From positions 20,490 to 84,489 of the forward strand of contig JAFZKA010000115.1 in the NCBI GenBank assembly GCA_017551925.1: DNA of 64,000 bases. Direction: 5' to 3'. Both the position numbers and the translations under genes were made by a program. Below the pieces are notes generated by a model, which did no database searches, was not told the origin of the DNA, and worked only from the letters and a program-made list of their open reading frames with translations. Source of the DNA: Bacteroidaceae bacterium. Its GTDB lineage: Bacteria; Bacteroidota; Bacteroidia; Bacteroidales; Bacteroidaceae. Of this stretch, positions 13,274 through 31,333 are shown one piece after another (positions within the stretch are counted from its first letter, which is position 1; each line of letters begins with the position of its first letter).

Positions 13274-13642
13274 ATGAAAGGTCTTTGGACAATACTGCTT
13301 CTGGTGATTTCAAACATTCTGATGACATTTGCGTGGTACGGAAACCTTAAACTCCAGGAGATGAAAGTGAGCACGGACTGGCCGCTTATCCTTGTGATTC
13401 TGGCCTCTTGGGGACTGGCTTTCTTTGAGTATTGCGTAATGATTCCGGCCAACCGAATCGGGTCCGATATTACCGGAGGGCCGTTCAATCTGGTTCAACT
13501 CAAGGTCATACAGGAGTGCATATCGCTCATAGTGTTCTCGCTCATTCTGGCGTTCTGCTTCAAAACGCAGTCGCTGCACTGGAACCACCTGGTTTCCTTC
13601 ATATTCCTGGTCATCGCCGTATTCTTTGCTTTCTTGAAGTGA
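13274..13642 (+). CDS. DMT-superfamily small membrane protein (DUF486-like)
   Basis: The ATG at 13274 (the ORF-track start at 13268 is TTG) gives MKGLWTILLLVISNILMTFAWYGNLK. Four predicted TM helices in ~120 aa. Confidence 0.75.
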   Translation: MKGLWTILLLVISNILMTFAWYGNLKLQEMKVSTDWPLILVILASWGLAFFEYCVMIPANRIGSDITGGPFNLVQLKVIQECISLIVFSLILAFCFKTQSLHWNHLVSFIFLVIAVFFAFLK

Positions 13643-13650
13643 TTTTTGTC

Positions 13651-13845
13651 GCTGGAGCATAAGGTGGTCGGGAGTTGATTGCTCCGGGCTACTCCGAACC
13701 CTTCCGATACCTAAACATCGATCGCCTCCCTTTTAATCCCCTTCGGGGCTTAACGGTCGTTGAACGCAGCGATGTTTTTAACGGCATCTCCAGGGCTCTC
13801 CGTTTACGCCCTACACAAGAACTCCCGACCACCTTATACTCCAGC
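13651..13845 (+). ncRNA. Structured GC-rich element, copy 1 (candidate 3'-UTR RNA / sRNA of unknown family)
   Basis: 13651..13676 pairs with 13820..13845 (25 of 26 bp). The 143-nt interior holds the ccccttcgggg hairpin and blocks shared with 31060..31254. It lies 8 nt after the DMT stop and upstream of a separate terminator. Strand is inferred from that context only. Confidence 0.4.
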
Positions 13846-13857
13846 TCTAGAATACAA

Positions 13858-13923
13858 TCGCACCTGCGTAAATAAAAATCCAGTCAATTGCTTGGCTGGA
13901 TTTTTTATCCCACGCAGGTGCGA
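13858..13923. terminator. Nested bidirectional terminator between convergent genes
   Basis: Outer 12-bp stem tcgcacctgcgt/acgcaggtgcga (13858..13869 / 13912..13923). It encloses the inner hairpin aaaaatccag..ctggattttt (13874..13905), which has A- and T-runs on both sides. Confidence 0.7.
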
Positions 13924-24657: not shown

Positions 24658-24790
24658 AAAACCTTGAAGGGTATAGTCTCCAGAACTACGGCCCTTCGGG
24701 CCTATCCCTCCCACCGCTTCGCGGCGGGCCCCTCCCGTTCACAAGCCCACGGGCGGCCATGGTTCCTGAGACTATACCCTTCAAGGTTTT
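24658..24790 (+). ncRNA. Structured GC-rich element, copy 2 (same architecture as 13651..13845)
   Basis: Perfect 23-bp closing stem, 24658..24680 / 24768..24790. The 87-nt interior has ggcccttcgggcc and ccgcttcgcgg hairpins. It lies between the panD stop and the real terminator. Confidence 0.35.
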
Positions 24791-24842
24791 GGTTCGATTG
24801 GAATCCGAGTTAGTTTTGGAGGGTTTCCATTTGCAGATATAG

Positions 24843-24879
24843 AAAAATTAGCCCCCGCATATTGCGAGGGCTAATTTTT
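24843..24879. terminator. Bidirectional terminator between panD and the mmd operon
   Basis: aaaaattagccc(c)cgc-atatt-gcg(a)gggctaattttt. Long stem with one mismatch and A/T runs on both sides. Confidence 0.75.
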
Positions 24880-24950
24880 ACGCGACTGTAAGGAGCGCCG
24901 TTTGGGTTACCCAAACTAAAAAAATGTCAGGGGTATGCTACTTACAATGC

Positions 24951-31059: not shown

Positions 31060-31254
31060 GCAGAACTGACAGTTTGGGGAGCCGAACCCTCCACGGCTAC
31101 GCCATACCTTTACGGACCCTAAACGGCGAACTCCTCCATCATAACCACCTACGGTGTCTATTCGTCGTCGGACATGCGCCGTTTTTAACGGGGTCCTCCC
31201 AAGGCCTGGCGCTATACGCCGTGTCACTGATGCTCCCCAAACTGTCAGTTCTGC
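31060..31254 (+). ncRNA. Structured GC-rich element, copy 3 (homologous to 13651..13845)
   Basis: Perfect 23-bp stem, 31060..31082 / 31232..31254. The interior shares colinear blocks with copy 1 (ccgaaccct, atacct, ctaaac, gtttttaacgg, tacgcc) at near-identical spacing. Confidence 0.4.
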
Positions 31255-31333
31255 TTCTGCAAATCGCAGGCTTTGTCTGCAGTAGAATGACACAAAGGGA
31301 CCGGTTCCCTGTGCCTACAAGCATGCTCTTGTG

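Follow-up and report, generated by a model that had tools for sequence, protein, structure and literature searches.

Two sites in a 64,000-nucleotide (nt) stretch of DNA from a Bacteroidaceae bacterium (GenBank assembly GCA_017551925.1, contig JAFZKA010000115.1, positions 20,490 to 84,489 of the forward strand; hereafter the window) are copies of a previously uncatalogued, high-copy family of rod-shaped hairpins of 191–196 nt. Copy 1 lies at 13651..13845 and copy 2 at 31060..31254; both are 195 nt long, were delimited by inverted repeats and RNA folding, and have the minus strand of the window as their folded strand. Our analysis firmly establishes that these sites belong to a new and abundant family of hairpin elements that folds in one strand and is independent of neighbouring genes, and that pairing within the rod is under strong selection or correction. 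What the elements do is a matter of graded probability. The reading we favour, with slightly less than even confidence, is that of a non-autonomous hairpin repeat, akin to REPINs and miniature inverted-repeat transposable elements (MITEs), that acts as a folded single strand, with single-stranded DNA (ssDNA) slightly preferred over RNA.

Two copies of one rod-shaped element

Both inverted repeats described in the original prediction, which was made from the window alone, were recovered in an inverted-repeat search. The arms of copy 1 are 26 nt long, 96% complementary and separated by 143 nt, and those of copy 2 are 23 nt long, 100% complementary and separated by 149 nt; we calculate that chance would produce a perfect 23-bp inverted repeat within 400 nt about 4e-7 times in 64 kb. 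On the folded strand, the basal helix of copy 1 joins the 5′ arm GCTGGAGTATAAGGTGGTCGGGAGTT (13820..13845) to the 3′ arm (13651..13676) over 26 bp, and the lone c/a mismatch of the plus strand becomes a G·U pair. The basal helix of copy 2 is a perfect 23-bp duplex between the 5′ arm GCAGAACTGACAGTTTGGGGAGC (31232..31254) and the 3′ arm (31060..31082), and its 5′ arm follows the family layout of a GCNGRAC base, a variable middle and the top TTTGGGGAG.

The interiors of the two copies are homologous, as had been claimed: blastn aligned them at 68.4% identity over 98 nt (E = 8e-4), and the collinear blocks and their spacings are present in both. On the minus strand, the two copies share a CCGTTAAAAAC block (13774..13784 and 31181..31191) and a GTTTAGG block (13710..13716 and 31118..31124); in copy 1, the former supplies the GUUAA side of an asymmetric internal loop and the latter the opposite side, with one unpaired A. 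The apical hairpin is CCCC-GAA-GGGG in copy 1 (13738..13748) and CACC-GUA-GGUG in copy 2 (31146..31156), both with a C(GNA)G triloop, and its stem therefore covaries between the copies. The original prediction had proposed short local hairpins within the interiors; RNA folding instead gave a single continuous rod for each 195-nt element. The predicted minimum free energy was −103.6 kcal/mol for the minus strand versus −81.7 kcal/mol for the plus strand of copy 1, and −108.2 versus −96.7 kcal/mol for copy 2.

A profile made from the two cores matched the window only at copies 1 and 2. R1, a covariance model of the family described below, scored copy 1 at 183.1 bits (E = 6e-43, spanning 13641–13855) and copy 2 at 199.2 bits (E = 8e-47) and found no third copy in the window, and the variable stem segments had no match elsewhere in it. 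The 5′ leader of copy 2, CCTGCGATTTGCAGAA (31255..31270, minus strand), contains the TTTGCAGRA part of the family leader and the invariant A that adjoins the helix, and that of copy 1, GCGATTGTATTCTAGA (13846..13861, minus strand), is degenerate and matches the family motif poorly. Copy 1 begins 8 nt beyond the end of a DMT_6 gene (Pfam) at 13642, whose TGA occupies 13640–13642, and a convergent oxidoreductase gene (Pfam) lies on its other side. Between these convergent genes and outside the element is a separate nested hairpin with T-runs on both strands (13858..13923), which looks like a bidirectional terminator; this arrangement is the one originally described.

A dispersed family in gut Bacteroidales

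We scanned genomes with a pattern derived from three conserved blocks and metagenome contigs with a second pattern; all fetched loci carry a label of the form L plus a number. The genome scan yielded six genuine copies in four Bacteroidaceae/Bacteroidales metagenome-assembled genomes (MAGs), three of them in one MAG, and one chance match (L038) that we discarded. According to their record titles, one carrier MAG is from rumen and one from horse faeces. Model R1, built from these six copies and the two in the window, revealed one further copy 2.8 kb from a genome-scan copy. In the metagenome contigs, at least 120 loci matched the second pattern, and R1 gave 108 strong matches in 100 of the listed loci and 24 more in the other 20. 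The search for more copies that had been suggested from the two window sites thus brought the family to at least about 130 further members in Bacteroidales genomes and metagenomes.

Judged by record and sample names, the carriers are uncultured Bacteroidales, mostly from rumen and from hindgut or horse faeces; the window's own genome was matched only in metagenome assemblies, which by sample names come from ruminant gut. Several contigs of 60–135 kb carry two or three copies, from which we estimate a density of about one copy per 30–60 kb. A search of the elements in the window and at 13 other loci against Rfam 15 gave no match at the gathering score, in line with the earlier failure to assign the element to a known RNA family, and at E ≤ 10 only spurious matches of the miRNA or snoRNA type appeared, on the neighbouring terminator or the stem. 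The search was working, as it detected an FMN riboswitch (L039:6050-6164) and a TPP riboswitch (L062:9576-9669) in the fetched loci. The literature we searched held no description of the family, and phage and plasmid collections and a second scan of viral contigs gave no family match. A first viral-contig scan with a two-block pattern had returned 27 matches; none fit the core profile, and we therefore treated all of them as chance and rejected them.

Covariation and the folded strand

Consistent with a conserved structure, RNAalifold predicted 64 pairs from eight MAFFT-aligned copies, 30 of them with compensatory double changes. Across 108 distinct copies, standard pairs filled 96.3% of cells, compared with 76.7% after shuffling and 38–48% when partners were slid. 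Changes on both sides occurred at 54 of the 64 pairs, and the covariation score was 0.469, as against 0.138 for shuffled and about 0.05 for slid partners. Because the 108-copy alignment was fitted to the model, the eight-sequence result serves as an independent check on it. This covariation, a test of which had been proposed, is very strong and bears out the claim of a structured element with a conserved core and a closing helix kept by compensatory change. Among the predicted pairs across the aligned copies there were 356 G·U and 42 A·C combinations; an excess of this size identifies the minus strand of the window as the folded strand, opposite to the one originally read. Covariation and a strand-specific wobble bias together mark the element as a structured single-stranded nucleic acid, either RNA or ssDNA.

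The consensus of the folded strand consists of the leader ATTTGCAGGA, the rod GCCGGACTATCGGTTTGGGGAGCATCAGTGGAGAGGCGTAAGCGGAGGGCCCTGGAGGATCCCGTTAAGAACGGCGCTTCGTTTAACGACCGTTAGGCCCCGAAGGGGACTAAAAGGGAGGCGTTCGACGTTTAGGGTCCGGAGGGGTCCGGAGTAGCCTCGGAACGTTGTCTCCCCAAACCGATAGTCCGGC and the tail GGTGCTTAAA. Rod length is 191–196 nt in 92 of 107 copies (about 85%). Above the basal helix, short helices are set apart by GGA/GGA internal loops; the rod also has two asymmetric loops in which GU(U)AA faces a single A, and a larger loop that holds AACGAC and GGGAGG. About three in four copies have C(GNA)G as their apical loop. At five loci (L048, L082, L096, L083:5553-5750 and L113), a subfamily has about 45 additional nucleotides at the GGAGUAGCC loop (TTTTGCGTAGCAAAA...GGCTACGCGCAGCGTAGCC), and this insertion contributes two mini-hairpins with triloops of the GNA type, GTA and GCA. 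A small hairpin in the 5′ leader (GCAAA...TTTGC) was plausible by eye, and we rejected it since its complementarity (4.65) was no better than that of permuted partners (4.63 ± 0.08). The leader and GGAAC columns, which we considered for a pseudoknot, are too conserved to show covariation.

A two-turn basal helix with a free middle

The basal helix is uninterrupted for 22–26 bp in 66 of 107 copies, 40 of which have exactly 22 bp and 19 of which have 23 bp. Its first 7 bp, at the base, are conserved as GCNGGAC and its last 9 bp or so, at the top, as TTTGGGGAS. By contrast, almost every position in the 8–10 bp of the middle takes any of the four pair types across copies, and pairing there is perfect in nearly all cases. 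The closing stems of the two window copies had been called unrelated in sequence, which holds for this hypervariable middle and not for the conserved base and top. Wobble pairs are scarce, with 55 G·U pairs and 70 other mismatches in about 2,100 cells. The helix is long enough to be an RNase III substrate, as had been suggested.

Copy pairs whose cores are 85–95% identical have essentially unrelated stem middles. The cores of the L050 and L103 copies are the same at all but 2 of about 150 positions, yet the stems are different, and similarity ends sharply at GGAG/CTCC. Three further pairs behave in the same way, so that cores 93–99% identical can bear wholly different middles. We also compared orthologous loci beside two genes that, read from their translations, are likely aspS and tyrS (the latter from its N-terminal part). 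There the stem middle was either retained (about 0.9 identity) or fully different (0.2–0.4), at loci where codon third positions were 0.63–0.79 identical and core identity was 0.64–0.95. This bimodality points to discrete replacement and not to gradual drift. The middle segment is thus decoupled from the remainder of the element, and the unusual feature of the family is a two-turn helix with a free-sequence middle, obligatory pairing and replacement as a unit.

One explanation, which we regard as improbable though worth stating, is that the family represents a new class of bacterial hairpin defined by a two-turn basal helix that is free in sequence, obligatorily perfect and rewritten as a unit. 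In such a class, hairpin-templated synthesis might rebuild one arm from the other whenever the element is copied or replaced; alternatively, RNase III might dice the helix, as double-stranded RNA, into small RNAs specific to each locus. A Bacteroidales enzyme would then use the conserved core and the one-sided leader as its handle.

Leader, tail and genomic context

The 16-nt leader motif gTTtCcnTTTGCAGgA precedes the helix on the 5′ side of the folded strand only and has A at position −1 in 95 of 101 copies; on the 3′ side, the rod is followed by a GGWG tail and, beyond it, an A-rich tract. Each exact TTCCNTTTGCAG in the roughly 1.2 Mb of fetched loci sits at an element. The conserved A of the Bacteroidetes −7 box is replaced by C (87%) in the leader, which also comes without a −33 element and is therefore not a canonical promoter. 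A sigma-54 reading was also rejected: by inspection, the GG-to-GC spacing is 9, where the sigma-54 consensus has 10, and most copies are without the GG.

Canonical TAnnTTTG promoters in the flanks mostly point outward (36 and 42), and those pointing into the element number 7 (of 97) in the sense and 10 in the antisense direction; a canonical Bacteroidetes promoter upstream of the element was accordingly rejected as absent. Strong terminators near elements face inward in 31 cases and outward in 9, and an intrinsic terminator after the rod, which we had considered, is present in only 6 of 100 copies and was dropped. Over about 100 copies, the upstream gene has the same orientation as the element in 43 cases and the opposite one in 44, and the downstream gene in 48 and 47. 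Only 1 of 107 copies falls within a called open reading frame (ORF), and the family is thus intergenic. Outward promoters, inward terminators and random orientation together place the element between transcription units and not in an untranslated region (UTR). Measured against GC skew, element orientation (46 versus 37, p = 0.45) gave no sign of a replication-strand bias. No neighbouring gene family, be it reverse transcriptase, transposase or integrase, recurs near the copies, and the largest cluster covers 7 of about 110 loci. Where two copies on one contig have opposite orientations, all eight pairs are head-to-head and none is tail-to-tail; some of them lie at orthologous loci, so the independent cases are fewer than eight. 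In the close pairs (L130:1562-2023, L150:1715-2164, L062:1442-2107 and L159:2945-3567), the leaders face each other across 30–236 nt.

The original prediction had suggested a 3′-UTR element. A cis-acting element in the 3′ UTR of the upstream gene (DMT_6 for copy 1) would suit the position of copy 1 between the DMT_6 stop codon and the terminator, a stretch probably transcribed by read-through from DMT_6. The resulting RNA would contain the plus strand, the poor folder, and the element is missing in close relatives with an identical DMT protein. The orientation statistics contradict it: both orientation and gene context are random, and no constant placement relative to an upstream gene was found. 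We therefore judge a 3′-UTR role to be extremely improbable.

Alternatively, the family may consist of stand-alone small-RNA genes, the chief competitor of our favoured reading and a view that we consider doubtful but serious. Transcription would begin at the invariant A from a non-canonical promoter in the leader, RNase III would cut the perfect basal helix of 22–23 bp, and a core RNA of about 150 nt would be released whose GGA/GGA and GUUAA/A loops might bind or sequester a protein. The strand-specific fold with its fixed G·U pairs accords with this, as does the minus strand being far more stable under RNA energy parameters, and so does the asymmetric leader, which is confined to the 5′ side of the folded strand and places its TTTG at −9 to −6 and its A at −1. 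A helix of fixed length and free sequence fits an RNase III site or a processing stalk, and here helix length is fixed at two turns and the middle is sequence-free. The retention of intact, identically oriented copies at orthologous loci points the same way, as do the absence of a replication bias and the exclusively head-to-head arrangement of opposed pairs, which resembles that of divergent transcription units. Several observations fit poorly, however. The leader has C at the position of the −7 box A and is without a −33 element; canonical promoters are plentiful for the neighbours and point into the element in the sense direction at only 7 of 97; and what follows the rod is an A-rich tract and not a conserved terminator. 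In some copies the leader lies inside an outer helix. Dozens of copies per genome are unusual for a small RNA, and GNA triloops are unusual for RNA.

Replacement, duplication and inversion of copies

Close relatives that share the DMT protein exactly are without the element, and their entire spacer differs; the spacer at this locus is thus replaced wholesale between strains. In one related strain, a different GC-rich spacer, about 235 nt long and with hairpins and a nested terminator of its own, takes the place of copy 1 at the DMT locus (L032:3370-3600). Elsewhere, full-length copies 95–98% identical lie between unrelated flanks, as at L092 and L078. Contigs frequently break within the element, and the sequence at L064 appears to be recombinant or chimerically assembled across it. 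Upstream of the likely tyrS, L046:2268-2810 holds one new, complete element and, behind it, the 3′ half of an old one, the resident that is seen in the relatives L094 and L102, and this locus looks like a replacement caught in the act.

After some copies come between one and four additional tandem units, each about 41 nt long and made up of AACGTTG, a 3′ arm and GGWG (L123:915-1080, L111, L063, L084, L105, L141 and L097). These units are identical in L123 and have a different variable segment in L084, L105 and L141. An additional outer helix surrounds a minority of copies, by our estimate roughly a tenth, with at least three unrelated sequences, and some outer helices enclose the leader as well. 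At L124, a long-form element lies between the same two flanks as at L144 and L044 in the opposite orientation, indicating an inversion across the outer inverted repeats between related genomes. Element orientation is conserved at four other orthologous loci.

These features could in part be produced without any function, by long quasi-palindromes kept perfect through template switching inside the inverted repeat and gene conversion from copy to copy, and tolerated in non-transcribed spacers. Such a process would account for perfect stems with few wobble pairs, outer palindromic extensions of unrelated sequence, tandemly duplicated arm units, cores that are homogenised alongside stem middles that are not, and the location of copies between inward-facing terminators and outward-facing promoters. 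It leaves unexplained why the unpaired motifs (GUUAA, the GGA loops, GGAGG and the leader) are kept across about 130 diverged copies, and why rod length and helix length are both fixed. Correction of double-stranded DNA would also not yield the bias of G·U over A·C on one strand. On balance, we find a functionless origin quite unlikely.

A substrate for site-specific recombination seems very unlikely to us, whether in the form of an attC-like folded single strand or of an invertible segment flanked by inverted repeats. Like the attC sites of integrons, which function as one folded strand with structure conserved above sequence and with conserved unpaired bases, the element has a strand-specific fold in which structure is conserved above sequence. 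Perfect identity of two arms is also what strand exchange requires, and the long form is inverted at one orthologous locus. However, attC sites are 57–141 nt long, which the 195-nt element (191–196 nt in the family) exceeds; the GTT/AAC blocks lie mid-rod, and R/L boxes are absent from the hairpin foot. The copies are isolated or head-to-head and do not form cassette arrays, and no integrase or invertase gene lies nearby. Inversion of the interior, itself a rod that contains no canonical promoter, would have little effect, and the orientation at the four other orthologous loci is fixed.

Relation to known hairpin elements

Among the classes we compared, the family shares only the generic features of MITEs, and it fits best among the hairpin-forming dispersed repeats, as a variant of its own. 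Its elements are small, non-coding, dispersed and of high copy number (at least about 130 copies, all intergenic apart from the one ORF overlap). Their termini are conserved only in part, at the GCNGGAC base and the TTTGGGGAS top, with 8–10 hypervariable base pairs between. No direct repeats that would represent a target-site duplication were seen at the borders of short or long forms, judged by eye only and without an empty site for comparison; no transposase gene adjoins the window copies, and no gene family is recurrent near copies elsewhere. The original view that the element does not look like a MITE was therefore too strong for a family that is high-copy, dispersed and intergenic, with partly conserved termini and near-identical copies at unrelated loci. 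It stands in that neither a target-site duplication nor an autonomous partner was seen at or beside the copies examined.

Palindromic MITEs such as the Neisseria Correia/NEMIS elements, enterobacterial ERIC and the pneumococcal RUP and BOX elements are similarly dispersed and intergenic, measure 100–200 nt, form long single-strand hairpins and show presence/absence polymorphism between strains; Correia hairpins are RNase III substrates. Unlike them, the rod family has only partly conserved termini and a one-sided conserved leader, its covariation shows selection for pairing in old copies, and no matching insertion sequence (IS) element was seen near its copies. REPINs (REP-BIME elements with RAYT transposases, in Proteobacteria) resemble it in their many copies, strictly extragenic location, long hairpin per unit, long-term persistence in a lineage, lack of any gene within and single-strand-specific fold. 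Both also have a conserved motif that contains GTAG (GGAGTAGCC), which is internal here. The rod family differs from REPINs in being about twice as long, in its Bacteroidales hosts and in its deeply diverged copies with compensatory changes, where REPINs cluster around a master sequence; it has a conserved interior and a partly variable stem, and REPINs the reverse. The architecture of two inverted REP palindromes of 20–40 nt with a terminal GTAG was not found, the unit being a 195-nt rod, and no RAYT is encoded in the window.

RNase III processing stalks, as in precursors of rRNA and of some small and phage RNAs, likewise place a free-sequence, obligatorily paired helix of about two turns beside a structured core. 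The rod family, known here from sequence only, differs from them in its dozens of copies and in lacking a conserved promoter or terminator. 6S RNA, Bacteroides-1 and -2, Bacteroidales-1 and Y RNA-like RNAs are of similar size (about 190 nt), and 6S and Y RNA have a closing stem; by contrast, these are single-copy genes, and none of their models scores at E ≤ 10 on the element. The element has a closing repeat as a retron msr-msd region does, but no reverse transcriptase gene adjoins the window copies and no neighbour is conserved.

A folded single strand as the proposed mobile form

How might such a family arise and persist? According to the REPIN/MITE-like reading, an enzyme whose gene lies elsewhere in the genome would act on the folded single strand, with ssDNA slightly preferred and RNA possible. 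The two conserved boxes of the two-turn basal helix and the asymmetric leader would form a recognition and cleavage module. Copies would spread into new intergenic sites and also overwrite resident copies in place, and through this overwriting old loci would stay filled with intact hairpins even as the free-sequence stretch of the stem is renewed. We prefer this reading because of the copy number and dispersal, the recent copies at new loci and the in-place replacement, and because of the nested palindromic extensions, the absence of promoter and terminator signals, the few basal wobble pairs and the GNA triloops. GNA triloops are the classic loops of very stable DNA mini-hairpins; together with the scarcity of basal wobble pairs and the lack of a conserved promoter or terminator, they hint at DNA over RNA.

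Several findings weigh against this reading. No trans-acting enzyme, autonomous parent or target-site duplication was found near the copies examined, and element orientation is not biased by replication strand, a bias that is usual for IS200/IS605-type ssDNA transposition. Neither the DMT locus nor the locus beside copy 2, which is always filled, yielded a clean empty site. The near-identical copies at different loci come from metagenome assemblies, and some of them, such as L064, could be chimeric joins at a repeat. Two G·U pairs are fixed, in 94 and 97 of about 100 copies. The predicted strand asymmetry in folding energy is also much larger with RNA than with DNA parameters: under DNA parameters the two strands come to −56.2 and −54.3 kcal/mol, and under RNA parameters they differ by about 11–22 kcal/mol. 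The leader has TTTG at −9 to −6 and the invariant A at −1, which we take to be the spacing of the Bacteroidetes −7 box and its start site. Finally, despite deep divergence (cores about 75% identical), almost all copies are intact, and place and orientation are kept beside the likely aspS, the likely tyrS and other genes over about 25% synonymous divergence. Intact old copies kept in place resemble per-copy selection more than selfish turnover. The REPIN/MITE-like and RNA-gene readings are not mutually exclusive.

Other features of the window

A second hairpin element at 24658..24790, related to the rods but distinct from them, has 36-nt arms that are 89% complementary and share homology with the outer helix of some rod copies at other loci. 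The interior combines an H1-like stem with a different core of about 60 nt made up of small hairpins, and its fold is very stable (−74.2 kcal/mol, z = −7.3). It was undetected by model R1. A truncated relative of this element lies at L078:1-170. Close to it on the plus strand is a solo perfect leader motif, GTTTCCATTTGCAG (24823..24836), which is followed by no rod and only by a terminator-like hairpin at about 24850–24880. It is the sole exception to the rule seen in the 1.2 Mb of fetched loci, where all other exact leaders are attached to a rod.

Right beside copy 2 begins a low-GC island (about 31300–53000; 35–42% GC, compared with about 50% elsewhere), which was probably acquired horizontally. 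Its genes encode an HTH protein, a caspase-domain protein and giant surface proteins with Fn3 and Big_2 domains (1,332 and 1,919 amino acids), and several further ORFs in it have no Pfam match.

Implications for gut Bacteroidales

Bacteroidales of the rumen and hindgut are among the most abundant gut bacteria, and at about one copy per 30–60 kb the rod family appears to be among their commonest non-coding features. It is absent from Rfam 15 and from the literature we searched, and its covariation support is among the strongest obtainable. Its design is unusual, combining a conserved core, a two-turn helix with a free but paired middle, a one-sided leader and nested outer helices. Either way, the element breaks metagenome assemblies and can cause chimeric joins, and it could serve as a marker for strain typing. 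If the elements act as RNA, they would be a new and abundant class of non-coding RNA; if they are DNA hairpin repeats, they would point to a yet undescribed mobilising enzyme in Bacteroidales.

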